From an uncultured Ignavibacteriales bacterium (lineage in GTDB: Bacteria > Bacteroidota > Ignavibacteria > UBA10030 > SZUA-254), in NCBI GenBank assembly GCA_963714795.1, contig CAVQPS010000009.1, positions 710,970 through 774,969 of the forward strand: DNA of 64,000 bases, read 5' to 3'. Positions 42,317 to 63,029 of the stretch are shown here, piece by piece. Both the position numbers and the translations under genes were made by a program. The notes below the pieces were generated by a model. The model made no database searches. It was not told where the DNA came from and saw only the letters and a list, made by a program, of their open reading frames with translations. How positions within the stretch are numbered: position 1 is the stretch's first letter; each line of letters opens with the position of its first letter.

Positions 42317-43608
42317 TGCCCGGACAGTCGTTTCTTGAACTCGACCTCAGTATCGTTTTTCTTCTTTCCGTCATTCTAATCTGGTTCATGATCTTCTACC
42401 AGCTTGTGCTGACGCTGGCGGGATTTTTTCATTACCGGAGTTCTATCAAAGAACGTCGTCGTATCGATAAGCAGACATTCGATTATCCGCGTGTGTCGAT
42501 TCTGATTCCCGCACATAATGAAGAAAAAGTGATTGCGTACACCGTTGAAGCGATGATGAACCTCGAATATCCGAAAGACAAGCTGGATATTCTCGTTATC
42601 AATGACGGCTCGAACGACGGCACCGCGTCGATTGTGCAGAAATATGTCGATCAAGATTCACGTGTGCGGCTGTACAACGTCCCGAAAGGTGAGGGAGGCA
42701 AAGGAAAATCCCGCGCATTGAATTTGGGGCTGAAGCAAACCGACGCGGAGTTCATTGCAATTTATGATGCCGATAACACTCCCGATCCGAAAGCATTACG
42801 ATATTTGATGGCGCAAATTATTTCCGATGACAAACTCGGTGCGGTGCTTGGAAAATTCCGTACGGTAAATAAAAACCGCAATATTCTGACGCGATTCATC
42901 AATATCGAAACGCTCAGCTTTCAATCGATGCTGCAGGCGGGGCGGTGGAAGCTGTTCAAAGTATCGACATTGCCCGGCACCAATTTTGTCATCCGCCGGA
43001 ATTTGCTCGACAAACTCAACGGTTGGGATGAAGATGCGATCACCGAAGATTCCGAGTTGAGCATCCGCATTTACAAAGAAGGATTGCGCATCAAGTGCAT
43101 TCCGTATTCGATCACGTACGAGCAGGAGCCGGAATCGTGGAGGGTGTGGATCAAACAGCGGACGCGATGGGTGCGCGGCAATAATTATGTCGGCACGAAA
43201 TTTTTGAAAGAGATTCCGGCATTCAAGAATAAATTTCTCGCGTTCGAATTACTCTATTTATTGTCGCTGTATTACGTATTCCTTGTTGCTATCGTCAGTT
43301 CCGACGTCCTGTTTGTGCTGGGATTATTCAATGTTGTCACGATCAGCCTGCCTGGTCCGTACACCGCGGTCTGGATCGTCGGTATCGGATTATTTTTGCT
43401 GGAAATTCTTCTCGCGCTTTCGTACGACCGCGAAGACAGTTTTTCAAACATTCTCATTACGTTCCTGATGTATTTTACCTACTGCCAGCTCTGGATTTAT
43501 GTGGTGGGGAGGGCGCTCTATCTCGACTTCATCAAGAAAGAAAAGCGGACATGGGTGAAGACCGTGCGGTTCGATGTGAAACCGGCGGCAACGGAGACGA
43601 AGCATTAA
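42316..43608 (+). CDS. Family-2 processive glycosyltransferase (PgaC/IcaA/NodC-like)
   Basis: I place the start at ATG 42316, which overlaps the upstream TGA (TGATG). It has ILIPAHNEE, INDGSNDGT, IYDADNTP, TEDSELS and QRTRWVRG (QxxRW), with TM helices at both ends. Confidence 0.9.
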   Translation: MPGQSFLELDLSIVFLLSVILIWFMIFYQLVLTLAGFFHYRSSIKERRRIDKQTFDYPRVSILIPAHNEEKVIAYTVEAMMNLEYPKDKLDILVINDGSNDGTASIVQKYVDQDSRVRLYNVPKGEGGKGKSRALNLGLKQTDAEFIAIYDADNTPDPKALRYLMAQIISDDKLGAVLGKFRTVNKNRNILTRFINIETLSFQSMLQAGRWKLFKVSTLPGTNFVIRRNLLDKLNGWDEDAITEDSELSIRIYKEGLRIKCIPYSITYEQEPESWRVWIKQRTRWVRGNNYVGTKFLKEIPAFKNKFLAFELLYLLSLYYVFLVAIVSSDVLFVLGLFNVVTISLPGPYTAVWIVGIGLFLLEILLALSYDREDSFSNILITFLMYFTYCQLWIYVVGRALYLDFIKKEKRTWVKTVRFDVKPAATETKH

Positions 43609-43708
43609 AAATAAATGGGGACTGGGAGGAAGTTCAACTTCTCAACGAATTGAGTTATCAACCGACCAGACATTGTTCAATCAGCAGTAGAACTGCTTCC
43701 CAGTAGAT

Positions 43709-43741
43709 AAAAAAACCCGGCCATTTCTAGCCGGGGTTTTT
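43709..43741. terminator. Bidirectional terminator element, copy 1 (A-run CCCGGC-CATTTCTA-GCCGGG T-run)
   Basis: A hairpin flanked by A7 and T5, lying between the convergent GT2 gene and the lipase pseudogene. Near-identical copies occur at 50912-50943 and 54113-54144. Confidence 0.75.
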
Positions 43742-43866
43742 GCCCTTCCACTACAGAAACTTATTCTACTTTACCATTACCTTAAATTCATAGGAGGGTG
43801 ACTTATGCTTCACCCTCCCATATGCCCTCCACAATCTAATCCACACGGAGAAGAGGGCACACAACC

Positions 43867-47436: not shown

Positions 47437-48881
47437 TTATTTCATCGAGATTGGGTTTTCGTTCTTAATCTGGACATTTTCCTTCGACCATTCCTTTCCG
47501 TTCCAATACCGCACTCCGTTCTTAAGATTATCAAGATAACTTTGGTCAAACGTTCCGCGAAGTTTTCCTTCGGCTATGAGTCTTTGTCGGAACCGAAGAG
47601 TAGCGCTTGAGTATTTTATGTCGAGAACATTTAGGTTTTCAGAGAGAACATACTCGAAAATCGGGTGGCCTCCGGTGTGAGTAAGGCTGTCGAAATAGGA
47701 GCCGGTAATAGAAACTGTAAGTGCCGGTTTTCCATTATATGTTGTTTGTTGAACCGATTCGATGCGTCCATTGGACTTTCAACAAATAATTCATATCGGA
47801 AAGTGGAAACCGGACATAGGAGAGTTCAGCCGGAGATGGGGGCAAATCAAACCCGGGAGTACAGTTCGATTCTGACCGACCGATAATCTTCTCGGGATCG
47901 ATCAGAGCAAGAACCGGAAAACTCAACGAATCCATTTCGCCAAGATCGTTTTGACCGAATACAAAAAGTTTTTTCTTGCCATCTGTCAATTGAAGGAGGA
48001 TATTCTTAACATCTCCGTAATGAGCGTACGATCCAAGAATATTTGTTTGGTTATCCAACCGAAAAATAACATTTGGAGACCGACCATTATTTGTTCCAAC
48101 AATAATTTCCGGCAACTAGTTGGCTGCATATTTATTGCATTGTATGTTCCCTACTCCAAAATTGTCATCGTATTTTTTTCCTCGAAACTCTATTTGTTGT
48201 TGAAATACTTTCTGGTAAAGCAATTTTTTGTCGTACGTGAAAATAGACAAAGGTGGAGCTATAAAAGAATGATCCCCAAATGGAAGGCAGGATAATACCT
48301 CGTTTTTTCCATCCTCATTGAGGTCAAATAGAACTACTTGCTCGTAATCTTTTCTCAGATTATCTTCATGAAGTCCATTCAATGCTTTTGAAGGAAGATT
48401 CCAAAGCATATCATGTTCACGATTATAGATTTCTAACATGCCTTGTTCTGGATTTAAATGAACATACGCAGGGTTTACGTCCTTTTGCAATTCCTTTGTT
48501 CCAAACATAAATATCATTGCCAACGTTGCAATTCCCGCAAGGCTTCCAACGCCGGTTACCACGGGATGGTCGACGAATGAAATATGAAAGTCTACCTATC
48601 GCTGTGGCTCGGTCGATACGGTATCGGCGGTGTATATGGTTCGTAGTACGGCTCAATGTTTTGCCGTGAACGAACGAGCCGCGTGCTTACCGGGCGTTCT
48701 GTATGCTTGGTATTTTTTAAATGCATCGTCGGCGCGTTCAGTAAAAGGCTTGTATTTGGTCAGCGAGTGCCCGGCATCCGTGGCACTCAGCAAAGTGCCG
48801 TTCAATTTCATCTCTTCGCTCTTCGACGAGCTCGGAACCGAGAACGTATAATTCTATGATATGTTCATCAATATGCTGCAT
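47437..48881 (-). pseudogene. Disrupted zf-HC2 anti-sigma-like membrane protein A (ZnF - TM - FG-GAP-like extracytoplasmic domain)
   Basis: My translation from ATG 48881 reads MQHIDEHIIELYVLGSELVEERRDEIERHFAECHGCRAL.. (Hx3Cx2C). It continues in other frames through the TM segment VVTGVGSLAGIATLAMIFMF and FDLNEDGKNEV / IIVGTNNGRSP repeats. It has an in-frame TAG at 48116-48118 and at least 4 frameshifts. It is paralogous to 54412-55836. Confidence 0.7.
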
Positions 48882-48932: not shown

Positions 48933-49385
48933 TTAACCCTCTCCCCTGTCCCGACTTCGTCGTGACATCCCCTCTCCCAAATTTGGGAGAGGGGAACGAG
49001 GGGAGAGGGTCAATATCTTTTCCAGAACTTTCTCAACATCCTCAAGAACTTCTTCATTTTTTATTCTCAACACTTTATATCCGCCGGCCATTAATTCTTC
49101 ATACCGCACACCATCATACTGTTTCTGTTCATTCAACTCATGAATACCGCCTTCAAGCTCAATCACAAGTTTTAAACCGGCACAGTAAAAATCTGCCACA
49201 TACCTGCCAATATGGTGTTGGCGTTTAAACTTCAAACCGTCGAGCGAGTGGCGCCGAAGCTTCTGCCAGAGAATTTCTTCTGCAGGAGTCGAGCGCTTCC
49301 TGAGTTGCCGCGCAACCTCGATGATATAGTGTGGATATTGTTTCATGGTTTTTACCCTCTCTTTATCCCTATCTTTGCGGGACAT
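48933..49385 (-). CDS. DUF559 (Vsr-like endonuclease fold) protein
   Basis: It has ..RKRSTPAEEILWQKLR..LKFKRQHHIGRYVADFYC..LVIELEGGIH..RYEELMAGGYKVLRIKNEEV... It is intact. The start may be ATG 49346. Its C-terminal tail is encoded by the flanking palindrome. Confidence 0.85.
   Translation of the reverse strand: MSRKDRDKERVKTMKQYPHYIIEVARQLRKRSTPAEEILWQKLRRHSLDGLKFKRQHHIGRYVADFYCAGLKLVIELEGGIHELNEQKQYDGVRYEELMAGGYKVLRIKNEEVLEDVEKVLEKILTLSPRSPLPNLGEGMSRRSRDRGEG
48936..49010. repeat. Nested palindrome at the 3' flank of the DUF559 gene
   Basis: The outer arms are ACCCTCTCCCCT (48936-48947) and AGGGGAGAGGGT (48999-49010). Inside is a perfect 28-bp palindrome, TCCCCTCTCCCAAATTTGGGAGAGGGGA (48968-48995). 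Partial direct copies (GACATCCCTCTCCCAAATT, AGGGTGAGGGTCAA) lie at 49381-49446. Confidence 0.8.
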
Positions 49386-49452: not shown

Positions 49453-50479
49453 TCATAATTCTTTCAATTTCTTCACCGCTTTCTTCTGGACAAGCTTCAT
49501 TAAGTATTCAATTTTATTTCTATGTATTTTCGAATATTCTTCTTTCGTCAATCGCGGAAGACGTTGCTGTAAACTCTCAAAAAGAGAACTATCGTGTCCA
49601 TCTTTTCCGATGAACTTATTACACAGCACTTCTTGAATGGAACAGAAGTACAATCCAAATATTTCCTCTGTTACTTTTTCATTTTCAACATATTTTTGTA
49701 CGGTTTGTCGTCGAACATCGTTACAAGCTTGCCGAAGGATAGCTGTAACATCTTCGGAAACAAGTGCTGCATCGATCGTTTCCGATTTCAGGTTGTGCCA
49801 GTTCTTTTTTCTCATAGACGGTCCGAAAGAGGATACCGACACCGACAAACGGCAGAATCCGGCATCGTTCGATTTGCTCCCGGAGTAAAAGCGAAAGCTT
49901 TGCCAAAAGATCGGGGATAAGCTCATCACCTCGCGCTATGTGCAGGAAACAGTGTTCAAGTTCCTCACGTTCGAACGGAGGTAAATGGACCAAGGTATCA
50001 CAGAGACTCGGAACAATGCACGGTTCACCGAATCGTTCAATTTCCTCAAAATTTTTCAGAGAGTGAATTGCCAGCTTAATGTTCCGGAGAATTTTCGACA
50101 AGGATGGATCTGCCTCGCTGTACAACCGGAAAATGCTCTGGTTCACCTTCGAAAAAACAAGCCGCCGCAGGTGAATGAGAATCTCTTCGTCGCGTGCTGT
50201 CGCAATTGAAAGACCGGCGAAGTATGCCTGAAGCTGTCGGTATTTGCCGTCGCCGTCTTCCTGAAAAAGGTCGGCAATGCAATCGTAGGCAAGGTCGGAG
50301 GTGGTGAGATCATAAACAGAAATCAATGACTCAGTTGTTGCTTTGCTCGCGAGGAATGAGGCGGCAAGAGAGTGAGAAACGCCAATGAGGCAATTCAATT
50401 CCTTGCGCGAATGTGATCCGGCAAGAATTGCCGCGATAATGACACGTAATCCCTTTGCTATGCTTGTCTGTTCGATCAT
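49453..50479 (-). pseudogene. Disrupted sigma-70-like (divergent ECF-like?) protein A
   Basis: ORFs 49721..50764 and 49453..49929 overlap in different frames, and the shift maps to the A6 run at 49805-49810. It has region-2-like blocks (DLAYDCIADLFQ; LIHLRRLVFSKVNQSIFRLY). It lies upstream of a zf-HC2 anti-sigma gene and is a paralogue of 55912-56941. The sigma assignment is weak and made by eye. Confidence 0.5.
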
Positions 50480-50911
50480 CCGATTGTACAGCTTCACTGA
50501 CTTTCTAACTATTGATATGCAGAACAGAATTTTCGATTTGTTTTTACGGAATCGGGAGAGAAAGGTATGTTCATGAATGGGAAATAATCCTTTCGTTTCC
50601 TTTATCCCTGCCGTGAAAGATTTAGGAATGTACTGAATAAGCAAGAAATTCTCAAGGCATAATAGCAGTTCTTTAACAGAAATCGGAAAAACAACGCACT
50701 CGATGGTATACAGCAGGGCTTTCGTAAACAGAAGGTTGGCAAGAGATGTCCATAATCTATACAAAGAGGCTATCTTAACACAGAGAGTGAAGTGACTGCC
50801 AACAGCTATTGAGTCGGATTAAAATTTATCTGAATCGAAGGCGATCGAGAGGAATTACCCTCTTATGGGCAAGCTGATTTCAATCTTTGGCATTCAATTC
50901 ATTTGTAAAAT

Positions 50912-50943
50912 AAAAAAACCCGGCCATTTCTGACCGGGGTTCT
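50912..50943. terminator. Bidirectional terminator element, copy 2 (partial family member)
   Basis: AAAAAAACCCGGCCATTTCTGACCGGGGTTCTT, lying 40 nt downstream (minus strand) of the LuxC-like gene. Confidence 0.7.
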
Positions 50944-50982
50944 TGCACTTCCACCTTTCTAAGTATAACCGAGATAAATTAA

Positions 50983-52467
50983 CTACTTGATGAGTCCCAT
51001 TTCGGCTGATTTTATCACTACCTTGGGTTCCATGATTCTCAAGGCATAATCATTACCTTCATGTATAATTGGAACTAAATTTGCAGTCGGGTGATTGAAT
51101 AAAACAGTATGTGTGTTTATTGAAGACGCTAATCTTATATCATCCTCTTTGAGATGAAGTAAGCTGACAGCTAATCTTGGATGAGCGGTTGCATATTTAT
51201 TAACGTGTTCAATTGCTTCAGCTACGGTGCCACAATATCGGACTGCCAAAACATATGCAGATACTTCCACACCAAAAAATTCAGGAAGATGCTCCTGGCT
51301 CTGAATAATTACTGGTTCGGCCTGATGTGGATGGATCCGTCTTCCTCCATAAAAAGTTTTGATATTGTTTGCCTTGATCTTTTCAAAGATATAATTGAGA
51401 TTATCTGGATGTACAAATCCTATTTTTGTATCAGGGTCTAATGGGTCACCAACTTTTAACTGTAATAGATAATCTGCAGCATCTTTAGCCCAATTAGTAC
51501 TTTCAATAGCCATGACAGATTTTGTTGCTGTACACCCAATAGCATATCCTGTTGATTTATATAATAATTCCCCAATATTGTTGTCGAATTGTCCCTGTGT
51601 TATGGAAGCACAATTTCCTGATCCATGTCGCAATACGTTCTTGCCAACAAAATGATCTTTAATTTCGTATTGCATTACTAAAGCAGATTTTAAGCGGTTC
51701 GGATCTGATAAAATAGTAGGCAAATCATTTGGATCTATTGATATTATACCACGTTTTCCTTTTTGCTCATATCTAAGCGTATTATCCACAGTATCATCTG
51801 ATCCAAAAGTCCACACAAGAGAACTAGCATCCACTAATTTAAAATGTTTTCTTCCAGCATCTGCATCCGATGTATTAAAATACACTAGATTGCAGAAATT
51901 CGGATCAAAGCCACCTTCAATCAATGCACGAATTACATCTGTTGCCATAGCATCTTCTTTTGATGCCTTAATTATAAAGGGCACTCCGAAATAGCATAGG
52001 TTCGTTGCAACAAATGCTACTGCTCTAGGATCATTACCTGGTGTCACTGCATAGCAGAATCCTTCCAGGGGAGAAAAGGTTTTATAAATTCCCGAACCAA
52101 TGTGCTCTGAACATATTTGGTAGTCGGTGGTTTTCGGGAATCTTTGGTTGTATAGACTTGGTATACTAGTAAATAAATTAGGGATGTCTTGTGCATAATC
52201 ATTTAGAATAGATACTGGCATTCCCGTCATCTTGACGGTATGCTCTATATCATCTTGTGTGCATTTGAATAGTTTAGCAGTCTTATGCAGTGCATCAATC
52301 CTATTGGCCAGAGTTAATATGGCCGCCTTTTTAGTGTTGCCGATAGCCCGGGAGATTTCCATGTCCTTCGTATTTGCAACTTCATATTCATATTTGTAAA
52401 AGATGGACTTTACTTTAAAAACATCTGTTGCAATATTGCTCCCTCCGATTATCGATGTTAATCTCAT
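50983..52467 (-). CDS. Aldehyde-dehydrogenase-superfamily protein, LuxC-like acyl-CoA/acyl-protein reductase (tentative)
   Basis: 494 aa from ATG 52467. Blocks resembling LuxC family motifs (recalled from memory) are AVTPGNDP..VPFIIKASKED, LVWTFGSDDTV, HGSGNCASITQ (candidate catalytic Cys) and IIHEGNDYALRI. It is intact and starts 2 nt after the upstream stop codon. Confidence 0.65.
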   Translation of the reverse strand: MRLTSIIGGSNIATDVFKVKSIFYKYEYEVANTKDMEISRAIGNTKKAAILTLANRIDALHKTAKLFKCTQDDIEHTVKMTGMPVSILNDYAQDIPNLFTSIPSLYNQRFPKTTDYQICSEHIGSGIYKTFSPLEGFCYAVTPGNDPRAVAFVATNLCYFGVPFIIKASKEDAMATDVIRALIEGGFDPNFCNLVYFNTSDADAGRKHFKLVDASSLVWTFGSDDTVDNTLRYEQKGKRGIISIDPNDLPTILSDPNRLKSALVMQYEIKDHFVGKNVLRHGSGNCASITQGQFDNNIGELLYKSTGYAIGCTATKSVMAIESTNWAKDAADYLLQLKVGDPLDPDTKIGFVHPDNLNYIFEKIKANNIKTFYGGRRIHPHQAEPVIIQSQEHLPEFFGVEVSAYVLAVRYCGTVAEAIEHVNKYATAHPRLAVSLLHLKEDDIRLASSINTHTVLFNHPTANLVPIIHEGNDYALRIMEPKVVIKSAEMGLIK

Positions 52468-52469
52468 AA

Positions 52470-53618
52470 TCAACCCTGCGCACATCCATTAAAGAGAAGT
52501 GCATTTTGCTCTGATGCATTTGCTCTATGAACATTCGTGATTACTGGACTAAAAAGTCCACAAGAGCATTCGCCCTCTTTGAGAGCAAGTGTAGCAACAT
52601 CGCCTGGCCAATATCTCATCCATATTGTACCATCACGAGCAAAAGAAGTATAGATTAAATATCCCTCTTCACCTTTATCTACGGGTTTCCACGAATCTTT
52701 ATCTTTTTTCACGACTTCGATATAATGTGGTCCGTTTAGCAAGTGAAGATTATTATGATGGCACTGAGCTTGGGACGTTAATGCAGGATTAGTGCTGCAT
52801 GCTTGTGGAATTGCCTCTGAAGAGCCAAGACATGTTGCAATGGGAATGTCACCTAAATAATTCCTTGCTAGATCTAGAGCATATGGTACAATTTCAAAAC
52901 CTCCTAAGAAAACAAATTCTATCTGTCTCTGTCCATCCTTATCGGGTACCAAGATGCCTTCATGTTGAGGATTTTCAAGTGACTTTTCAACAAGATCGTG
53001 AAGATTAATGCCTGCTGATTTTGCTTGCTTGTCCATATTTTCTATTGGTTGCTGTACCGTAAAAAGTACGTTTGCTTTATAATCTCGAATATTTTCTAAA
53101 ATCTTATCCGGTCCTTCTTCCGGCCTTCTTAATAGAACATTAACACCTAACGCAACAAGGCTTTCCTGAATCCACTGACCACCTTTATGTGTTAGATTGT
53201 AAGTAGATATCGCCGTATCTCCCGCAGCAATGCCGTGATATTTGATACTTCTTCCAAAAGCTTCAACCTCACGCTCTCTATCATGGACAGTTATAAATGT
53301 TGGAGTATATTTACCCAGTGTTCCTCCACTACCAAATGTGACTACAGGAGAATTTATATCGTTCGGTTTTAGCAACCGAGGATTTGCATTTACGGTTTCT
53401 CTGAATCCTCTCAGTCCGTTTTCCTTGTTAGTGTCTTTGACACAAAGAGGAACTCTGTACCAATCTTCCTGAGTTCTTATGCTATGCGGATGAATGTCTG
53501 CCAATGTCTCAGCATACATGCCGGGCATCTCTGATTTACACCTTCCGAGTTGTTCCTTGAGAAAAGGTAAAATCATGGTGAATAATCTGTCTTGATCGAC
53601 ATTATCCCATCCATGCAT
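52470..53618 (-). CDS. PaaK/CapK/LuxE-like adenylate-forming enzyme lacking the PaaK C-terminal lid domain (LuxE-like acyl-protein synthetase, tentative)
   Basis: 382 aa. By eye it is collinear with the PaaK N-domain (VVTFGSGGTLGKYTPTF, KANVLFTVQQP, MRYWPGDV, ECSCG). It ends ..LLFNGCAQG with a Cys near the C-terminus, as in LuxE. A further ~35 upstream codons are open but have no start codon in frame. Confidence 0.65.
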   Translation of the reverse strand: MHGWDNVDQDRLFTMILPFLKEQLGRCKSEMPGMYAETLADIHPHSIRTQEDWYRVPLCVKDTNKENGLRGFRETVNANPRLLKPNDINSPVVTFGSGGTLGKYTPTFITVHDREREVEAFGRSIKYHGIAAGDTAISTYNLTHKGGQWIQESLVALGVNVLLRRPEEGPDKILENIRDYKANVLFTVQQPIENMDKQAKSAGINLHDLVEKSLENPQHEGILVPDKDGQRQIEFVFLGGFEIVPYALDLARNYLGDIPIATCLGSSEAIPQACSTNPALTSQAQCHHNNLHLLNGPHYIEVVKKDKDSWKPVDKGEEGYLIYTSFARDGTIWMRYWPGDVATLALKEGECSCGLFSPVITNVHRANASEQNALLFNGCAQG

Positions 53619-54021
53619 AGAAAAACATGATGGTTCTATTTCTCGATAACTTTTTATTTCACCATTGATAATCCTTCTTTCTAATTCCAGAAACGGATTT
53701 TCGACACCTGTTAATTCTTTCCAACTTAATGAAGTTTCTCATACTTATTCACATTTATTTCTTAATTAATAATCGGATTTGCTAGTGGCAAGGAATTAAT
53801 GATACGGAATGACTAATTTATTTTTTGTTCAACTTTAGGCTGTCCATTCTCATCGATTTGGCTGCTTTAAAAAACTGCCAAATAACTGCGGAGGAGACAA
53901 AATATTTTTTTAATATTGAAAACCGAAGACATAATAAGAGGAATAATGTCTTACTTATATTAATAGCAGTTATTGCAAACTGCTGAAAAATTGTAAAGAA
54001 ATCTTTGATTGTTTAAAAATT

Positions 54022-54087
54022 AAGTAGACGTGGGTAAAGACCGCGGGGTTCGATGTGAAACCCGCAGCGACAGAAACGAAACGATAA
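54022..54087 (+). pseudogene. Remnant of the last 22 codons of a GT2 glycosyltransferase gene (diverged copy of 43543-43608)
   Basis: It reads K*TWVKTAGFDVKPAATETKR*, against KRTWVKTVRFDVKPAATETKH* in the live gene. By hand count 52 of 66 nt are identical. The same terminator element follows it. Confidence 0.8.
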
Positions 54088-54112
54088 AAATAAAAAGTAT
54101 AAAGTATAAAAT

Positions 54113-54144
54113 AAAAAAAACCCGGCCATTTCTAGCCGGGGTTT
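54113..54144. terminator. Bidirectional terminator element, copy 3
   Basis: AAAAAAAACCCGGCCATTTCTAGCCGGGGTTT, followed by the same second hairpin (GGGAGGGTGA-N8-TCACCCTCCC) as copy 1. Confidence 0.75.
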
Positions 54145-54411
54145 CGCCCTTCCACTACAGAAACATATTTTTTCTTTACTATAATACTAAATTTTGGGAG
54201 GGTGACTTATGCTTCACCCTCCCGCATGCCTCAGCCGTCTAATCCACAACAGAAGCAGACCTTTCTTATATTCCTAGCAGTCATGCTCTAACTGATGAAA
54301 AAATAATTAAAATTTTTTTTATGACAGAAGAATAGGGGGATAATGGATGACGTGAGGTTATCACCTTCCGAGCAAAACAGTAAAGAAAAGCGAAATATAA
54401 GGGATTCGGTA

Positions 54412-55836
54412 TTATGGACCGAAAGGTGTTTGTACCATTGTTACTTGTTTTCTCCATTCCTTCCCATCCCAGTATCGAACTCCATCTTTGAGCGCATCAA
54501 GATAGGATTGATCGAGTTTGCCGGTGAGTTTTCCTTCATTCACAAGGAGATCGTGTAATCGGTCTATGTCGTTATTTGATTTGACACGAAGAATTTTCAT
54601 ACTATCAAGTGAAAAGAAGTAATCAAAACCGAAAAAAGCCCGGAACTGTCCCGAAAACCTGCCGAGAAAGATACCATATTAGAATCTTCTCTTTCCATCC
54701 TAACTACAACATTAGTTTTATGAAGGAGCTTGCTTATATCCGATTCCGGAATTTTGATATAATACAATTCAGCATCGGACGTCGGCATTTGAAATCCCGG
54801 TGTGGCAGAGGATTTCTTTTGTCCGATAATTTTTTCCGGGTCTAAAATTGCAACAGCTCCGAATTCACCCCGGTTCGTGTCGTCTATATCATTTATACCG
54901 CAAGCAATGATTGCTTTCTTTTTTTCCGAGCCCAATACGAACTTCATAAATGAAATCCAATTGTCCAAAGTGCCAATATTCCCCAACAATTTTATTGTTT
55001 TTGTCTATCCTTGCAAGAAAGAATGGCGAACGGCCTATGTTGCTAACAGATACCAAGATTTCTTTTCCACTCTTGCCTCCGAAGTCATCCACAATGATAT
55101 CGCTAGGATTAAAATAGGGTGAATACTGACGGTCAAGGTAATGGACCGGTTCCTCAAAATTTCCTCTCCCATCGAAGGTTTTTATTATAATCAAAAACTC
55201 TGAGTGAAGAAAACAATTTTTCCCCTTTTGAAAGAATCGGAAGAGTGGTAATGAGTTCATTTTTTCCATTCCCATCAAGATCCGCAATTATTGCTCTCTC
55301 ATTACGAGATCCAATTGCACGGTATTTGATTATCTTTCAAATTAATTGATGGAAGCTGCCAGAGTTTCTCATCATGTTTGTTGTATACTTCAATAAAATC
55401 AGTTGTAATATTATCCTTCTCATAGCTGGGATTATCGTCCTTTGTCGATATCCTCGACGTAAAGATTAATGCTGCCGCCAATCCCGCCACCATTGCAAAA
55501 CTTCCAACACCGGTGACAACGGGATGATTTCGGACAAAATATCGAAACTTTTCAATAGGTCTTGTCGGACGGTACGGAATCGGAGGAAGATCGGTACTGA
55601 AATATGGTTCTATCCCGCGTCGGGAACGAAGAATTGCAGTTTCCGCCGAAGGAAGCTCATCCGGCTTTTCCTCTAAATCTTTTTCCAGACCGGCATAAAA
55701 TTCCGTCAGTTCGTCAACAATCGCTTTGCAACCGTAGCATTCTGCCAGATGCTCTTCGATTTGGCGTTCTTTTTGATTCCACTTCCTCAGCGTGCAGAAC
55801 GTAGAGATCTAATGTATGTTCGTCGATATGTGTCAT
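54412..55836 (-). pseudogene. Disrupted zf-HC2 anti-sigma-like membrane protein B (paralogue of A)
   Basis: From ATG 55836 it reads MTHIDEHTLDLYVLHAEEVESK, then shifts at the A5 run (55770-55774) into ..ERQIEEHLAECYGCKAIVDEL..PPIPYRPTRP..VVTGVGSFAMVAGLAAALIF... Further shifts occur near 55300, near 54950 and at the run 54632-54637. It has ADLDGNGKNEL and LDPEKIIGQKKSSATPGF blocks. The C-terminal piece is ORF 54412..54600. Confidence 0.7.
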
Positions 55837-55911: not shown

Positions 55912-56941
55912 TTACATATTCCGTTTTAATTCTTTCACTGTTCTATCGTATGTAAGCCGGGCAAGATATTCTAATTTTGATTTATGGCATCCATAATATT
56001 CATCTTTTGTCAAGGTCGGGAAGTGTTGTCCGTAGCCGGTCAAAAAATGAAAAGTCTTCGCCGTCTTTATCAATGATTCTTTGTTGAAGATTGAGACGGA
56101 TAACATCAAAATATTTTTCAAAAATCTCTACCGATACTTTGTTTTTTCCAACATATTTTGGCCAATTCTCATCCTGCACACATTGACAGGCAAGATCGAT
56201 TATTTTTTTGACGTCGGTGACAAAGAAATTATCTTCAGGAACTGTGTGCACGGCAGATTCCTCCGGCGAATCGTAGAGCGAACGAAATACCTGTACAACA
56301 AGAGTGATTGGAAGAATCCGGGAATTCGAAACCTGTTCCCGCATCACCACGGAAAGGCGTGCAAGAAGCGTCGGGACATTTTCGCTCCCGTTCGCTATCA
56401 CCCGCAAACTTACCTCAAGTTCATTTTGCTCCATCGGCGGGAGATGCTCAAACGAATCGCAGCCGGTGGGAACGATGCACTGCTCTCCCAACCGTTCGAC
56501 AATGGTGAAGCTCTGAATTGATTGAACGGCAAGTTTCAGGTTGCGAAGAATTTTTCCGAATGTCGGATCCGCTTCATGGTACATCCGAAGGATGCTTTGA
56601 TTAACCCGTGCAAAGATGAGGCGTCGGAGATATGCCAGCACTTCCTCATTGGAAAGTTTTTCAAATGAAAGTCCGTCGAAGTATACTTTCAGTTGAATAA
56701 AAGTACCGTTATCGTCACGCTGGAAAAGATCGGCAATCGAATCGAGTGCGAGATCTTCGAGAGGAATAGTCGAGAAATCAAGATAAAGTCGGCCGGTGCA
56801 AACTTTCTTTCGCAGGAATCCGAATGCAATACTTCTGGAAAGAAAAATAAATTCCTTCAACGAATCCGCGGTCGGATGATCGCCAATGATTTGAGCTATT
56901 ATCGATTTTACTTCCATGGAAACGATATTCTGACCCTTCAA
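55912..56941 (-). pseudogene. Disrupted sigma-70-like protein B (paralogue of A)
   Basis: ORFs 56000..56941 and 55912..56121 overlap in different frames. It has LEDLALDSIADLFQR and VLAYLRRLIFARVNQSILRMY. The C-terminal piece ..LTKDEYYGCHKSKLEYLARLTYDRTVKELKRNM aligns with the end of protein A. Confidence 0.5.
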
Positions 56942-57051: not shown

Positions 57052-60000
57052 TTGTTCATGGGGGATTTTGAGAATTTCCCGTATCTCTCTATATTGAGCA
57101 GTTCGGACAAACCAAGGCAATCTACTCTAGGTATATTTCAGCACATGCAAGAAACTCTTACTCCTGATTCAGCGTTAACACTTCCCGATTTTACGCTCGT
57201 GTCCGCATCGGCGGGAAGCGGAAAGACGACCGCGCTCACGCGAAGGTTCATACAGCTTCTTTTGTCCGATCGCATTCCGCACAACGATCTCCGGAATATT
57301 CTTGCCATTACGTTTACCAACAACGCCGCTGCCGAAATGAAACAGCGCATCCTCGGCGATCTCAAGAAAGCGTATTTCGGTGATGAGGAAATTCTTTCAC
57401 AGTTCAAAAACATTGTTTCGCTGGATGAAGAAACAATCAGGAAGCGGGCGGGCGCTCTTGTCGATACTATCCTGGATCAGTATTCCGATTTTCAGGTGCA
57501 AACCATCGATAGTTTTTTGTCGAGGGTACTGACCGTTTCCACGCTGGAGTTCGGTCTTCCGCCCGGTTTCGAAATTGTCTTGAACGGCAATCAGCTTCTT
57601 GATGAAGCGTTCGATCATCTGATGATGAAACTTGTTTCCGATCCGCCACAACGACATCTTCTCGAAGAATTGCTCGAGACTTCTTTCCGAAACCTGGAGC
57701 GATAAAGAAAAATTTTTATGGAATCCATATCATAATCTGCTCACCGAAATAAAAAACTTATATGCTCAGACTCGGCGGTCATGCCGGAATCATTGGCAGA
57801 TCGGCACCAAAATCCGGTAATCTTGATGCTATGCGTAAAGAAATTCTCGATGCGGTCTGTGCGATCGGTGATCTGGCGGAGCAATCCGGTTGTATTGTCG
57901 GGAAAAATTATCAAAAAATTATCGAAGCAGCGCGGGCGGGAGACATCAATTCGTTGCTTGATAAAAAACTCGATCAGCATGTACTGAACAAATCCAACGG
58001 TCCCGCGTACGAACAAACCGTCAAACAAATCGAACTTCTTCAAGACGAGTTGATGAAGAACGTTACACGATACTATGAAGCAAGAGCGCACATTCATTAC
58101 AGGCCGTATGTTGCCGCGTACCTATTGTTGTTGGATTTTTTGGAAATAGTTGAACAAAAAAGCGGCAAGCTTTCGCTGACCGATGCCATCAAGAAGCTGG
58201 CAACATCGCTGACGAGCGATGCAGTTCCGGAAATTTATTTCTCGCTCGGTGAACGGATTCATCATTTTCTTATCGATGAATTTCAGGATACATCGCCGAT
58301 TCAGTGGGCAACGCTTCGTCCGCTCATTGAAAATTCTCTGGCACAGCAGGGAAGTCTGTTTATCGTCGGTGATACGAAGCAATCGATCTACACATTCCGT
58401 GGCGGCGATTGGCAGATCATGAAACGGATGATGACGGAAGAGGAATTTCCGTCCGTTGCCCGCGAAATGAAAGAACTGACGACTAACTATCGAAGCGACG
58501 AAGCTATTGTCGCGTTCACCAAAAAAGTATTTCATGAAATTGTTCCGCAAAGAATTCCGTTGGCGATTGCGGAAAAAAGCGGGCTCACTTCATTTCAGCA
58601 GGAAGTGAAGCGGTCGGCTCAAGGAAAAGGATTCGTGGAAGTATACCCGGTCAGCGGTGACAAGGAAAATCCGTCTCCGGAAAAACAAAAACTGCTCGGC
58701 ATTCTTGCCGACTGCCGTAGGCGCGGCTACCGGTTTCGTGATATTGCCGTCCTCACGCCGAAGAATTCCGATGTCGTTGAAGTAAGCAGATGGCTGAATG
58801 AATCGGACATTCAGTTCATTTCACACAGCAGCCTGGACGTCCGTACGCGCAAGATTACCGGAGAACTTCTCGCATTACTGAAATTTCTCGATTCTCCGGT
58901 TGACGATCTCTCTTTTGCGACGTTTATTCTCGGGAATCTTTTTCATACTATTACGTCTGCCGAAGGCATTCATGACGATTTGAGTTCATCCATTCTCTCG
59001 CATCGGTCCGGCGACCATGACGATGAGCCTCTGTACACGCATTTCCGGTCGTTGTATCCTCATCTCTGGGAAAAATATTTTGAATCGCTGTTCAACCGTG
59101 TCGGCTATCTGCCATTGTACGATTTATTATCGGATGTTTATGGAACATTTTCTCTTTTCGATACATGTCCTGATGAAATGAGCTCTCTGGTGAAAATGCT
59201 GGAAGTTGTCAAGAATTTTGAACAAAGCGGCAGTAATAACCTGAAGGAATTTCTTGCGTATGCTGAAGAAGAAACGGATGAGGCGGATTGGAACATCGAC
59301 GTTTCCGCAGATACCGATGCCGTAACGGTGATGACGGTCCATAAAGCAAAAGGTTTGGGATTCCCGGTCTTGATCGTTTTGTTGTATGACGGAAAATCCC
59401 GGGCTGACAATCTTTTCCTGCATGAAGATGCGGATGGCATTCATCTCGTACGGATTATAAAAAAGTGGGCGGAACAATCGGCTGAGCTTTCGGCGATCTA
59501 CCGGGAAAAAAATATTCTCCGGCAGGTAGATGATCTCAATAAGCTGTACGTTGCGTTGACGCGGGCGCGCGAAGAAATGTATGTCCTCAGCGTGACAACG
59601 GACAAATTCGATATGCCATCGTCGTTATTGCCGCGTGATTTTTCTGCAGGAAAACATTCTCCCCCAAAAAAGTATCAACAAACAAACGAACAAACAACCG
59701 ATTTGGCTTTTATCGGCGGCTCTGTTTCCCCGGCATCCACGCGGAACGAAACGATCAATATCGCAGAAACGCAGCGCGGCGATTTTTTTCATGCCGTTCT
59801 TCAGCAAATTATCTTTCTCGGCGACGATCCTATTTCTCAAATAACCCGTGCGATTGAAGACTCGCGGCAGGTTGTTAGTGTTGACGGTGAAAATATTTCC
59901 CGCATCCTTCAAAAATTTTTGGGACAACCCGAAATTAAAAAATATTTTACCCGAATGAATGATCGAATTGTCCGGAATGAACAGGAAATCGGTTCTTCGA

Positions 60001-60203
60001 ATGGAAGATTGTATCGTATCGATCGCCTGGTGATCGATCCTGATCTCGTTACCGTCATCGATTACAAAACCGGAAGCGAACGGATCGAATACGTCTCACA
60101 GGTTAAAGAGTATATCGATCTGCTGAAAGATGTCTATCCTCAAAAAAGGATTCAGGGCATTCTTGCTTACATCGATCTGAACGTCGTGCGGAGCGTTAAA
60201 TGA
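57052..60203 (+). pseudogene. AddA/UvrD-type helicase-nuclease; reading frame broken twice between ~57690 and ~57775
   Basis: It has Walker A SASAGSGKTT (57052..57705 frame), a middle piece in the 57632..57820 frame, then 57762..60203 with FLIDEFQDTSPIQW, VGDTKQSIYTFRGG, TVHKAKGLGFPV and the PD-(D/E)XK block RIDRLVIDPDLVTVIDYKTG. The real start is probably ATG 57145. Confidence 0.8.
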
Positions 60204-60236: not shown

Positions 60237-63029
60237 TTGGTCGATGCCGTTCTTGCAGAACTTCGTCCCGAAGGGTTGGATTACAGCCGGTCGATGGTTG
60301 TCTTTCCCGGTAAACGCCCCGGTCATTTTTTACGCAAAGCGATCGCTGAGCGCATAGGTTCCAGTTTTCTTCCGCCGCGGATTTTTTCCATCGATAATTT
60401 TGTTGCTTACCTCGCGTCAGATCATCTCGGCATTCGACGGACGATGCTTGAGGCCGAAGATGCCGCGGCATTATTATTCGAGATTCACAGCCGCGGCAAT
60501 CATGCATTGGGAGGCAATCATTACCGGACGTTCGATACATTTTTTACGGTCGGTTTGAAACTCTTCGGCGAACTGGAGGAAGTGATGCTGACGAATCTTC
60601 CTGCAAAACATATTCATGCTGCGTTGAAGGGAATTGAATATGAAAAATTCCGATCGTTCGGAACGTATTATGAAGAATTTTACCGGGCGGTTGAAGAACG
60701 GGAATGGATGACACGCTCGATGATGTACCGTTCGGTTGCCGACCGGATTGACGAGATCGATTACTCGCAGTATACACAAATTATTATTGCCGGTTTGTAC
60801 GCGCTCACCGCAACGGAGCGTGCAATCGTTACCGGCTTGCGCCGACGCGGGAATGTTCGGCTTATTTTTCAGAATGGCATTGGATTGCCCGAAAAACTGA
60901 ATCAGCTTGGTATTGCCGTTCCGGAAAATTCTGTACAAGAAAAAGTTTCCCCAACCATACAGTATTACTCGTCGCCGGATACACACGGACAGGTATTCGC
61001 ACTTGCCGCGCAATTGCAGAAGCATCATAACGCGAACCGGGATGAACGGACAGCAATAGTTCTTCCATCTGCCGAAGCGCTTTTTCCTGTTCTTCACCAT
61101 GCGCTTTCTCATTTTGAGGAGCACGAGTACAATATTTCCCTCGGGTATCCGCTTTCCCGAACGCCGGTGTACGGTTTTCTTCAAAGTATCCTGGAACTGG
61201 TTGCCTCTGTTCGCAACGGTACATTTTCCAGCGCGGCATATCTCCGGTTTATGCTTCATCCGTACGTTAAAAATATCCGGTTTCACGATCGATCGGATAC
61301 CGCGCGCATTGTTATTCATTCCATTGAAGAATATTTTATCCGGACCGGATCGAAAACACTATTTGCTCTGGATGAAATTGAAAACAATGACGAACTCTTC
61401 GAATTAATTGCCCGCCGTATTAGCACATTGGACGAAAAGGCAACGGCGGGTAATCTTCAGGAACATTGCAGAACGATTCACGACCGGACGATCAAAAGAT
61501 TTCTTCGCATTGCGTCGATTCGGGATTTTGCATTGCAGTCAATTGATGTTCTTCAATATATCTTTGAACAAAGCACGGCGCGGCAGCATCCCTATTTTCA
61601 TCCCTATGTCGAACATGCGATTACCTTTTTCGACCATCTTGCGCGGTCGCCGATCGGCAATCAGCGATTTGAGGATACGGCAGGATACATAACATTTCTT
61701 CGGAACGCGGTCGCGTCGCAAACAGTACCGTTTTCGGGCACACCACTTCACGGACTTCAGGTTCTCGGATTTCTGGAAACGCGCAATCTTTCATTCGATA
61801 CTGTTTATTTCTTCGATGCGAACGACGATATTCTCCCGGGACGAAATGATCGTGATTTACTTCTGCCGTTTCCGGTTCGGAAAATGCTCGGGTTGGAAAC
61901 GTCGCATGATCGCGAATTATTAACGGAATATTATTTCGATTTGCTTATTTCATCGGCGAGAGAAGTGCATTTATTTTATAATGAAACCGGTAAAAAAGAA
62001 AAAAGCCGGTTCGTCCAAAAGCTGCTGTGGAAGTATGAGCAATCCAAACAGGATATTTCTTCCGAAGGTATCGAACGGAAAATTCGTTATTCCGTCAATT
62101 TAGGAAATGGCCGCCCGGAGCCTGTCAAAAAAACTACGTTGATGATCGATCAGATCCGGAACAATGTTCGGTTCAGCGCCTCGGCATTAAATACGTATCT
62201 TGCGTGCCCGTTGAAATTTTATTACCGGCATGTCCTTGGGCTGAACGAAAAAATTGAAATCTCCGATGATATCGAAGCATCGGATATCGGAACGATCGTT
62301 CATACAATTTTGAAAGAATATTTCAAGCCCCTTGTCGGAAAGCGATTAACCCGCGATAGTTTGGATGATAAGAAACTCAATGCAGTTATCGACCGTTGTT
62401 TCAAAGAATCCTTCGGTGAAGAATTTCCCGGGTCAATTTATCTGATGAAAGAACAGGTCGTGCGTCAATTGCAATCATTTTTACTGCATTATCAGATGCC
62501 GGTGGCGGATGGTTCAGTCATGATCACCGGACTCGAACGCGACCTTACTATTGATTATCGCGGTTTCACGTTTACCGGTCGAATCGATCGGATCGAAATG
62601 CGGGATGAAAAAATATATATTCTGGATTACAAAACCGGTTACGATGAAAAGCGTAATAATGTGAATGTTGAAAAATTAATTGCTGATCGTCGGGAAACGT
62701 GGCGTGAAGCAATCGGATCATTCCAGCTTCCGGTATACATGCTGTTGTATGCCACATTTTTTAAGAAGCCGATAGAGCAGATCTCTCCGGCAATTATTTT
62801 TTTGGGAAAACAACCGATCGATCAGTCGATTGAAGTCAGTATCGGCGATGATAGCCATACCGCTCATGACGTCTATCGGGCGGTGGAACCGGTCATGTTT
62901 ACCTTACTCGAAGAAATTCAGGATCAAGAAAAAGACTGGATTCCGACGGATACTATGGAACAGGAATGTCCCCGCTGTCCCTTTTCAACCATATGCGGAA
63001 CGGCCTGGGTTCAGGGCTGGAGCGCGTAA
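60237..63029 (+). CDS. AddB-like PD-(D/E)XK nuclease subunit
   Basis: 930 aa. It has the nuclease block GRIDRIEMRDEKIYILDYKTG and C-terminal cysteines (CPRCPFSTIC) that, with an upstream Cys, could form an AddB-type Fe-S cluster. It directly follows the AddA-like gene. Confidence 0.8.
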   Translation: MVDAVLAELRPEGLDYSRSMVVFPGKRPGHFLRKAIAERIGSSFLPPRIFSIDNFVAYLASDHLGIRRTMLEAEDAAALLFEIHSRGNHALGGNHYRTFDTFFTVGLKLFGELEEVMLTNLPAKHIHAALKGIEYEKFRSFGTYYEEFYRAVEEREWMTRSMMYRSVADRIDEIDYSQYTQIIIAGLYALTATERAIVTGLRRRGNVRLIFQNGIGLPEKLNQLGIAVPENSVQEKVSPTIQYYSSPDTHGQVFALAAQLQKHHNANRDERTAIVLPSAEALFPVLHHALSHFEEHEYNISLGYPLSRTPVYGFLQSILELVASVRNGTFSSAAYLRFMLHPYVKNIRFHDRSDTARIVIHSIEEYFIRTGSKTLFALDEIENNDELFELIARRISTLDEKATAGNLQEHCRTIHDRTIKRFLRIASIRDFALQSIDVLQYIFEQSTARQHPYFHPYVEHAITFFDHLARSPIGNQRFEDTAGYITFLRNAVASQTVPFSGTPLHGLQVLGFLETRNLSFDTVYFFDANDDILPGRNDRDLLLPFPVRKMLGLETSHDRELLTEYYFDLLISSAREVHLFYNETGKKEKSRFVQKLLWKYEQSKQDISSEGIERKIRYSVNLGNGRPEPVKKTTLMIDQIRNNVRFSASALNTYLACPLKFYYRHVLGLNEKIEISDDIEASDIGTIVHTILKEYFKPLVGKRLTRDSLDDKKLNAVIDRCFKESFGEEFPGSIYLMKEQVVRQLQSFLLHYQMPVADGSVMITGLERDLTIDYRGFTFTGRIDRIEMRDEKIYILDYKTGYDEKRNNVNVEKLIADRRETWREAIGSFQLPVYMLLYATFFKKPIEQISPAIIFLGKQPIDQSIEVSIGDDSHTAHDVYRAVEPVMFTLLEEIQDQEKDWIPTDTMEQECPRCPFSTICGTAWVQGWSA

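Follow-up and report, generated by a model that had tools for sequence, protein, structure and literature searches.

We analysed a stretch of 64,000 nt from an uncultured Ignavibacteriales bacterium (contig CAVQPS010000009.1 of assembly GCA_963714795.1, positions 710,970 to 774,969), referred to here as the window. The analysis concerned two co-oriented genes on its minus strand. Gene A (52470-53618) is now open for 382 aa, starting from Met42 of the ancestral protein, and gene B (50983-52467) encodes a 494-aa candidate thioester reductase with an aldehyde dehydrogenase (ALDH) fold. The open reading frame (ORF) of B counted from its first ATG comprises 500 aa (50983-52485); the second ATG, at 52467, gives the 494-aa protein, and this start agrees with the N-termini of homologues (M..PLIIxG). 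With it, the stop of A and the start of B are separated by 2 nt (GGT TGA tt ATG AGA). A G+C-rich terminator-like hairpin with a T-run (CCCGGTCAGAAATGGCCGGG; 50919-50938, minus strand) lies 45 nt past the stop of B and closes the A-B unit. A near-identical terminator hairpin 5' of A (54121-54140, minus strand) closes the preceding unit, so that the A-B transcription unit is delimited on its 5' side. An earlier reading of the window from its sequence (the original prediction) had described the two ORFs, the 2-nt spacing and a terminator belonging to the pair, and all three were found as described, the last as a hairpin and T-run at 50938-50919. It had also interpreted the pair as a LuxE-like/LuxC-like module that converts carboxylates to aldehydes. 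Our results indicate that A and B are members of a distinct, rare, PaaK-derived family, separate from LuxE and LuxC, that probably turns a carboxylic acid into an aldehyde. An acid-to-aldehyde module of LuxE/LuxC-like design is the best available explanation for the pair, and the evidence from other genomes strengthens it.

Gene A is predicted, by profile searches and a structure model, to encode a PaaK-type adenylate-forming enzyme that lacks the lid domain. Relatives were rare: 108 were found among 5.8 billion proteins, the closest being 64% identical and most being 423 aa long. The Pfam model AMP-binding scored 28 bits with A, just below its cut-off of 29.9, and was matched by nine of 13 family members. 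The LuxE model (PF04443) gave no match for A at E <= 1 and none for any of the 13 members at E <= 10. The NCBIfam matches of A (DVU_1553, PaaK, FlxY, and F390 synthetase) were weak and far under the cut-offs, and the PaaK equivalogs TIGR02155 and NF041878 reached 30.2 and 50.7 bits against cut-offs of 646 and 700, which places A outside both. In profile searches of the PDB, PaaK was the top match for A (1e-09), and a broad profile (alignment A5) found PaaK at E = 2.7e-46. The matches listed were PaaK-type proteins only, with no LuxE chain among the nine matches at E <= 1 (alignment A1) or among the best 60 (A5).

The AlphaFold2 model of A formed a single domain with a predicted local distance difference test score (pLDDT) of 90.4 and a predicted template modelling (TM) score of 0.90. 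Disorder was confined in the model to the P-loop (99-102), residues 199-201 around K200 and the tail (378-382). A Foldseek search with the model was led by ClxA, BT_0428, PaaK1/2, HCL, NatL2, and AjiA1 (TM scores about 0.65-0.73; E about 5e-18 for PaaK, BT_0428, and ClxA). LuxE was not in the top 50, and the lid-less EhpF appeared further down the list. A stops 17 residues past the hinge residue Arg365, whereas PaaK continues for ~100 residues more; the PaaK proteins among the Foldseek targets exceeded A in length by ~45-50 residues, and HCL did so by up to ~95. A PaaK-like N-terminal domain without a lid, as originally predicted, was therefore borne out, with PaaK the top match by profile and PaaK-type proteins leading by fold. 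We considered whether A is truncated at its C-terminus and rejected this: the additional 41 aa of the homologues are N-terminal, and the C-terminus of A is the invariant end of the family.

Conservation in the A family was assessed in an alignment of 73 sequences. The ANL motifs S97-G-G-T-x-G-x-x-T-P-T107, G265-S-S-E-A-I-P-Q272, and G339-D340 were invariant or nearly so, and the hinge R365 was invariant. Thirteen residues after the hinge begins a Gly-Cys pair, which in the window protein reads G378-C379-A-Q-G382-stop (Cys379 codon at 52484-52482). Across the family, the tail has the form G-C-x-x-G-COOH, occurring as GCAAG or GCCIG, with G378-C379 present in 73/73 sequences and the terminal Gly in 72/73. 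The tail and the CxCG block had both been pointed out in the original prediction, and both proved to be conserved family-wide. A fixed tail of small residues (G-C-A/C-A/I-G-COOH) suggests that it may thread into a narrow tunnel. Two lysines, K145 and K200, were each present in 73/73 sequences, K200 lying inside the disordered loop of the model. In the hidden Markov model (HMM) alignment, His144-Lys145 of A sit where the PaaK pocket has Phe-Thr.

Several known adenylating enzymes resemble A in part. It shares the P-loop, the SSEA/GxSE and GD motifs and the hinge Arg with the PaaK-type ligases PaaK1/2, BT_0428, ClxA, NatL2, and AjiA1; BT_0428 and ClxA additionally carry the CxCG block. PaaK differs in having a ~100-residue lid with the catalytic Lys and in forming CoA thioester or amide products, whereas A ends in GCxxG. 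A truncated ANL architecture is also seen in EhpF (PDB 3HGU/3L2K), which appeared in both the fold and the profile match lists of A, and in DVU_1553 (NF045666, 331 positions). The latter was the best NCBIfam match for A (59.7 bits) and for all remote relatives tested (<= 143 bits), with a cut-off of 300; its profile ends near the hinge Arg, so the GC tail of A falls outside it. We know of no ALDH partner for either EhpF or DVU_1553.

Gene B is predicted to encode a protein of the ALDH fold that keeps the canonical catalytic cysteine, Cys312, and lacks the general-base glutamate. We found 72 relatives of B, the closest 46% identical. The Pfam model Aldedh (PF00171) was matched at 45.4 bits (cut-off 23). 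The LuxC model (PF05893) did not match the window protein and matched one of 15 B members, at E = 0.008. The AlphaFold2 model of B had a pLDDT of 95.0, and its Foldseek matches were headed by GAPN and glyceraldehyde dehydrogenase (TM scores 0.72-0.75). Phosphonoacetaldehyde dehydrogenase, KGSADH, and other ordinary ALDHs were likewise among the leaders of the Foldseek and PDB profile searches, and LuxC was absent from the PDB sequence matches at E <= 10 and from the Foldseek top 50.

The predicted active site of B departs from that of hydrolytic ALDHs at the general-base Glu. C312 (motif GCTA; codon 51534-51532) was present in 65/65 members and aligned to the catalytic Cys of T. tenax GAPN. 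The original prediction had named as catalytic the Cys of the GSGNC motif (C286); this residue was found in 61/65 members only, and we rejected it in favour of C312. The position of the general-base Glu (ELGG) is occupied in B by R280-H281, with H281 present in 65/65 members, and none of the partner reductases in any clade had an acidic residue there. The equivalent of Asn169 in ALDH2 numbering, N145, was found in 54/65. Thus, relative to the hydrolytic set Cys302/Glu268/Asn169, the Cys is kept and the Glu is replaced. A Rossmann motif, WTFG, was present. The motif H469-E-G-N-D-Y474, correctly noted before as standing in place of the usual C-terminal ALDH motif (the anchor loop), was invariant and family-specific. 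The invariant residues near the predicted site were polar (HEGNDY, R148, D146, and H281), and no curated model matched the invariant motifs GFCYAVTPGNDPR, R-H281, and HEGNDY.

We then compared the surroundings of the pair in other genomes by running the A and B HMMs over all fetched loci. With one genome per species, across 185,579 species, relatives of A occurred in 14 loci only. Their hosts were Anaerolineales and other Chloroflexota, one 'Nitrospirae' metagenome-assembled genome (MAG), Micrarchaeota, Iainarchaeum, and Woesearchaeota. B lay directly 3' of A or one gene off in 15 of 17 non-redundant loci, and in the remaining two the contig ended first; adjacency was hence kept in 15/15 evaluable loci, bacterial and archaeal. 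Numerous short metagenomic contigs were also common to the match lists of A and B. This supports, from gene order, A and B as a functionally coupled unit, so that the coupling first claimed for the window was upheld elsewhere.

The genes around the pair differed between the two main groups of hosts. Anaerolineales-type loci contained gcvH-gcvP1-gcvP2, a 575-aa PRK-like protein, A, B, and FKBP, with an aminotransferase and an SHMT-GcvT fusion on the opposite strand. DPANN loci contained a 147-aa protein, FIST, A, in some cases a 300-aa protein matching no family, B, and V4R, with a KaiC-like ATPase close by; a small protein without a family match was listed between the KaiC-like ATPase and FIST. 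The DPANN cluster was seen at loci L003, L011-L019, and L021-L024, some of which add ApbA-like and SDR-like reductases. In the searchable literature, neither this family nor the FIST/V4R/KaiC-like/ALDH/PaaK cluster was found to be described. In one Chloroflexia MAG (MFD09779.bin.1.231; loci L002 and L010, 11106-12706), the B orthologue was divided between two overlapping ORFs of 225 aa and 312 aa, owing to either a frameshift or an assembly error, so the pair appears damaged outside the window too.

More remote relatives were sought by comparing the A profile with 1.84 billion representative proteins, which gave 28 matches at E <= 1e-30 and 954 at E <= 1e-3. Remote full-length A-like proteins (21-42% identical) were also lid-less, and nearly all ended in ...GC followed by two to eight residues. 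In a 40-sequence remote alignment, C379 was among only four invariant columns. Two remote clades (~23-36% identical to A) had an operon of a KaiC-like ATPase, FIST, the A-like protein, an ALDH, more genes, and V4R. With the Pfam LuxC model, whose gathering cut-off is 21 bits, their ALDH partners scored 31.6 and 45.1 bits, and two archaeal reductases paired with members of the A family itself reached 21.1 bits each; all partners passing the LuxC cut-off scored better on Aldedh. LuxE matches occurred in four of the 40 remote A-like proteins and were weak (best E = 0.0078). The connection to the Lux families at the superfamily level thus appears graded and tenuous, and the window proteins reach neither model. 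One remote relative of A (P0228, 505 aa) had a PP-binding carrier domain fused right after its GC tail (Pfam, E = 2.1e-08; LGLDSF). This arrangement fits a route from acyl adenylate to carrier thiol, and P0228 could be an evolutionary link between the Cys arm and phosphopantetheine carriers.

The closest known parallel to the pair is the LuxE-LuxC complex, of which a structure determined by electron cryo-microscopy is available in the PDB (PMC9157457). LuxE has no ANL C-terminal subdomain and ends instead in a tail of ~20 residues (TRxxKGCxLS), in which Cys364, following the active-site Arg355, is acylated from the acyl adenylate (PMC9157457). The tail is flexible and was proposed to swing > 30 Å to the catalytic Cys296 of LuxC, which lacks the catalytic Glu residues and Asn of ALDHs; the mechanism is independent of CoA and phosphopantetheine (PMC9157457). 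A and B reproduce this layout, with R365...G378-C379 in A for R355...G-C364 in LuxE, both as tails without a C-terminal subdomain, and with an ALDH-fold reductase encoded alongside that keeps the catalytic Cys and has no general-base Glu.

There are also differences from LuxE-LuxC. A is PaaK-derived and B is nearest to GAPN-type ALDHs, with no significant match to either Lux model. The Cys of A lies three residues from an invariant C-terminus, and the candidate Lys positions differ from that of the catalytic K238 of LuxE, which comes from an N-domain loop and pairs with the hinge Arg. The active-site motifs of the pair are polar, whereas the acyl cleft of LuxC is long, hydrophobic, and L-shaped. 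The pair occurs in Anaerolineales, in DPANN archaea, and in one Ignavibacteria-like island, and luxA, luxB, and luxD were absent both from the island in the window and from the other loci examined. We rejected LuxE/LuxC membership of the window proteins, which matched neither of the two Pfam models and had no LuxE or LuxC among the listed PDB-profile or fold matches; the Pfam comparison also took in every member of alignments A1, A2, and A5. What stands of the LuxE/LuxC-like reading is the architecture: the lid-less A, its tail Cys, the Cys of B without its Glu, and the adjacency of the genes.

Since each architectural feature of LuxE/LuxC is matched in A and B, we propose an acid-to-aldehyde mechanism in which the two proteins are the subunits of a carboxylate reductase that depends on ATP and NAD(P)H but not on CoA or phosphopantetheine. 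We give this reading a probability of roughly 0.55. From the folds, the motifs, the two invariant cysteines, the absent Glu, the absent lid, and the gene adjacency, all of them observed, we infer what reaction the pair catalyses, which way it runs, and that the acyl group passes from one protein to the other. A would adenylate a carboxylic acid on its PaaK-like core to give an acyl-AMP. Because A has no lid, the acyl group would then move to the thiol of its own Cys379 on the flexible tail. The tail would bring this thioester into the substrate tunnel of B and transfer the acyl group to Cys312. As B has no general-base Glu to hydrolyse a thioester, the acyl-S-Cys312 would be reduced there by NAD(P)H and the aldehyde released. 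The proposed sequence of acid and ATP, acyl adenylate, protein-bound thioester, and NAD(P)H reduction is also that of CAR and Lys2. These enzymes differ in being one polypeptide with a lid-bearing A domain, a phosphopantetheinyl carrier, and an SDR-type R domain. Pfam found no PP-binding or SDR domain in A or B of the window, P0228 being the only relative with PP-binding.

The same proteins could instead work in two steps through CoA, with A as a small acyl-CoA ligase, B as an acylating reductase of the PduP/EutE/AdhE type, and the Cys of A in a structural or regulatory role. JGI labels on relatives read 'phenylacetate-CoA ligase' and 'acyl-CoA reductase-like NAD-dependent aldehyde dehydrogenase', and the best NCBIfam matches of A, far below their cut-offs as they are, were CoA ligases (the DVU_1553 family, PaaK, and FlxY). 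B resembles PduP, EutE, and the AdhE N-domain in its ALDH fold, its catalytic Cys, the missing hydrolytic Glu, and a predicted thioester substrate, and LuxC accepts acyl-CoA as well (PMC9157457). PduP, EutE, and AdhE, however, use free acyl-CoA and have no lid-less adenylating partner. A also lacks the very lid that, in ANL ligases, gives the adenylation Lys and forms the conformation for making the CoA thioester, as established for PaaK (PMC9157457). A diffusible acyl-CoA would need no strict adjacency of A and B, and the invariance of the C-terminal Cys in 73 close and 40 remote relatives would be left unexplained. We consider a CoA-dependent route unlikely.

The reaction might also run in the oxidative direction. 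B would then oxidise an aldehyde and pass the acyl group to Cys379, and A would work in reverse (acyl-S + AMP + pyrophosphate to acid + ATP), conserving energy in a way that could be of use to metabolically poor DPANN. In its favour, oxidising ALDHs such as GAPN are the nearest folds to that of B, and members of the family occur mainly in DPANN archaea and in anaerobic Anaerolineales. In Syntrophus, acyl-CoA synthetases of the AMP-forming type are reported to work backwards. Loss of the Glu is, however, compatible with either direction, and no conserved pyrophosphate-related genes were found near the pair in the loci examined. We regard energy-conserving oxidation as quite improbable.

Several points weigh against the reductive, Cys-carried scheme. 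The window proteins match neither the LuxE nor the LuxC model, which makes the parallel one of architecture and not of demonstrable homology. There are two invariant candidates, K145 and K200, for the substitute of the lid Lys. The sequence does not fix the direction of the reaction. The neighbours of the pair in other genomes (FIST, V4R, the KaiC-like ATPase, and gcvH/gcvP/SHMT-gcvT) fit no obvious role in the scheme. Lastly, A of the window is without 41 conserved N-terminal residues.

The substrate may be a small polar or amino acid-related acid and not a fatty acid, as several features weakly hint. These are His144-Lys145 of A in place of Phe-Thr and the polar motifs of B, the closeness of B to ALDHs whose substrates are small anionic aldehydes (GAPN, phosphonoacetaldehyde dehydrogenase, and KGSADH), and the glycine-cleavage, SHMT, and aminotransferase genes or FIST proteins that are its neighbours elsewhere. 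The original prediction had imagined a different supply, in which a secreted lipase provides fatty acids that the pair turns into fatty aldehydes under sigma/anti-sigma control, as in LuxD-LuxE-LuxC. Apart from the LuxE/LuxC-like architecture, what favours this is the physical proximity of the genes in the window. The lipase, LamG, sigma-like, and anti-sigma-like ORFs, by contrast, had no homologue in the 22 other loci with such a pair, and a separate terminator stands between B and the next module. His144-Lys145 and the polar motifs of B are also unlike the hydrophobic cleft of LuxC. Neither the 'sigma-like' nor the 'LCAT-like lipase' neighbours had support in Pfam, PDB sequences, or PADLOC, and we rejected these labels together with anti-sigma. 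As no neighbour recurs and none has such a match, the links to a lipase, an acyl supply, and sigma control are unsupported, and we give a lipase-fed route next to no credence.

In contrast to the original prediction, which had called the pair intact and free of frame breaks, gene A has lost its ancestral start. A three-frame translation compared with an alignment of the 423-aa homologues located a remnant of the N-terminus at 53619-53742 (minus strand). The ancestral ATG is at 53742-53740, and an additional A at 53739 shifts the frame and creates an in-frame TGA. The 40 in-frame codons 5' of Met42 (53738-53619) still encode ETSLSWKELTGVENPFLELERRIINGEIKSYREIEPSCFS, which matches the N-terminus of the family (W7, E14, F17, G27, and others). 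Deleting the A at 53739 restores M-E-T-S-L-S-W..., with Trp at position 7 as in the homologues, and 41 + 382 gives 423 aa, the usual length in the family. An independent 6.9-kb contig from another sample (ENA ERZ25039480 contig_108986; L020) had 0 differences from the window over 50623-53854, including the frameshift site. A one-off assembly error is therefore unlikely, though a systematic sequencing error at 53739 is conceivable.

The loss of 41 N-terminal residues through this 1-nt insertion makes the activity of the pair in this organism uncertain. The 382-aa protein nevertheless appears to span the entire PaaK-homologous core: profile alignments with PaaK chains begin at alignment positions 37-40, and A of the window begins at about position 42 of the same alignment. 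All family-invariant residues are kept in both A and B. Selection on the pair had been argued from the absence of a frame break, an argument that falls with the lost start. The sole close comparison, L020, is 100% identical over the pair and so teaches nothing about selection, and the next nearest relatives are only 64% (A) and 46% (B) identical at the protein level.

The pair is the right-most part of an island. Two direct repeats, at 43548-43845 and 54027-54248 (~0.2-0.3 kb, the right copy 82-85% identical to the left), enclose a segment of ~10.5 kb that is low in G+C (0.38-0.42; the first 44 kb are mostly at 0.45-0.51). The left repeat contains the 3' end of a GT2 glycosyltransferase gene (42220-43608), a terminator, and a second hairpin. 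The repeats resemble a scar left by integration at a gene's 3' end, with duplication of that end; no integrase was seen. The remainder of the island consists of fragmented ORFs: a protein with a type IX secretion system tail, LamG pieces, a DUF559 gene, and two paralogous modules. The only matches of these neighbours were weak ones to Por_Secre_tail, Laminin_G_3, and DUF559. The phosphoenolpyruvate carboxykinase of the window is 83-85% identical to proteins of Ignavibacteria and Bacteroidota MAGs. We propose that the window copy of the pair was acquired horizontally, inside a repeat-bounded, low-G+C, decaying island, by an Ignavibacteria-like host.

The pair in the window could accordingly be a decaying passenger of this imported island, with A inactivated by the frameshift and its apparent intactness due to recent acquisition, a reading compatible with the mechanism proposed for the family. 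The insertion that removes 41 conserved residues occurs in two independent assemblies, and the surrounding ORFs are broken. The host is Ignavibacteria-like, and the nearest relatives of A and B (64% and 46%) are on Chloroflexota-type contigs. The pair is, moreover, 100% identical between the window and L020, whereas divergence in the flanks reaches 11%; this points to a very recent shared ancestry that left no time for decay. Retention of all family-invariant residues in A and B, of the PaaK-homologous core in the 382-aa A, of an open frame from Met42, and of the junction with B speaks against inactivation. On balance, we find it possible but rather doubtful that the copy is such a passenger.

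At the level of the family, we tentatively suggest, with clearly less than even confidence, that the pair is the catalytic core of an ancient KaiC-like ATPase-FIST-A-B-V4R module that is conserved across DPANN archaea and of which only the two enzymes are left in Anaerolineales and the window island. It would then represent a second, PaaK-derived lineage of carboxylate reductases with a protein-Cys carrier, independent of CoA and phosphopantetheine and acting on a small polar or amino acid-related acid, with LuxE/LuxC as a specialised, possibly convergent example. If the proposed mechanism holds, A and B form a lineage, independent of LuxE/LuxC and the second of its kind, of two-protein carboxylate reductases that run on ATP and NAD(P)H and carry the acyl group on a C-terminal Cys. 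Such carriage in place of CoA or phosphopantetheine was previously known from the lux system only. It would allow aldehydes or alcohols to be produced without a phosphopantetheinyl transferase, probably from polar substrates that LuxCE refuses, and would offer a testable biochemical role for the FIST/V4R/KaiC-like cluster of genome-reduced DPANN archaea, whose metabolism is poorly understood. It would also close an annotation gap for relatives now labelled as 'phenylacetate-CoA ligase', as 'aldehyde dehydrogenase family protein', or as 'hypothetical protein'. The window copy itself is of smaller biological weight because it is a horizontally acquired, partly damaged passenger in the reading proposed above.

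Several further features were recorded in and around the island. The terminator element is present in three copies (43707-43765, 50910-50968, and 54111-54169). The hairpin of this terminator, which is bidirectional, is found in the repeats together with another hairpin (GGAGGGTGACTTATGCTTCACCCTCC), and the remaining terminator copy (50910-50968) lies between B and the next gene. We also considered whether the pair or the island serves in anti-phage defence and rejected this, as PADLOC gave no matches. The paralogous two-part modules are located at 47735-48656 / 49453-50764 and 54412-55493 / 56000-56941. Their 347-aa and 313-aa proteins are 46% identical and their fragments 37-43%, and both 'anti-sigma' parts are fragmented. 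Neither module had a match in Pfam, PDB sequences, or PADLOC.

Divergence between the window (49469-54451) and L020 was mosaic. Next to the identical segment 50623-53854, the 'sigma-like' gene (49469-50622) was ~11% divergent, with 142 substitutions, many of them 3 nt apart, and nine indel columns. This pattern suggests that recombination took place with a breakpoint near 50622, or that the neighbour evolves fast or has undergone allelic replacement. A perfect 28-nt palindrome (48968-48995) lies near the 3' end of the DUF559 gene (48933-49385), which encodes a very-short-patch-repair-like endonuclease. Just beyond the low-G+C island, a UvrD/AddA-type helicase-nuclease is divided by a frame break into two plus-strand ORFs (57052-57705 and 57762-60203), which cover positions 16-116 and 115-266 of the UvrD-helicase profile, respectively. 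They are adjoined by an intact PD-(D/E)XK AddB-like gene (60237-63029).

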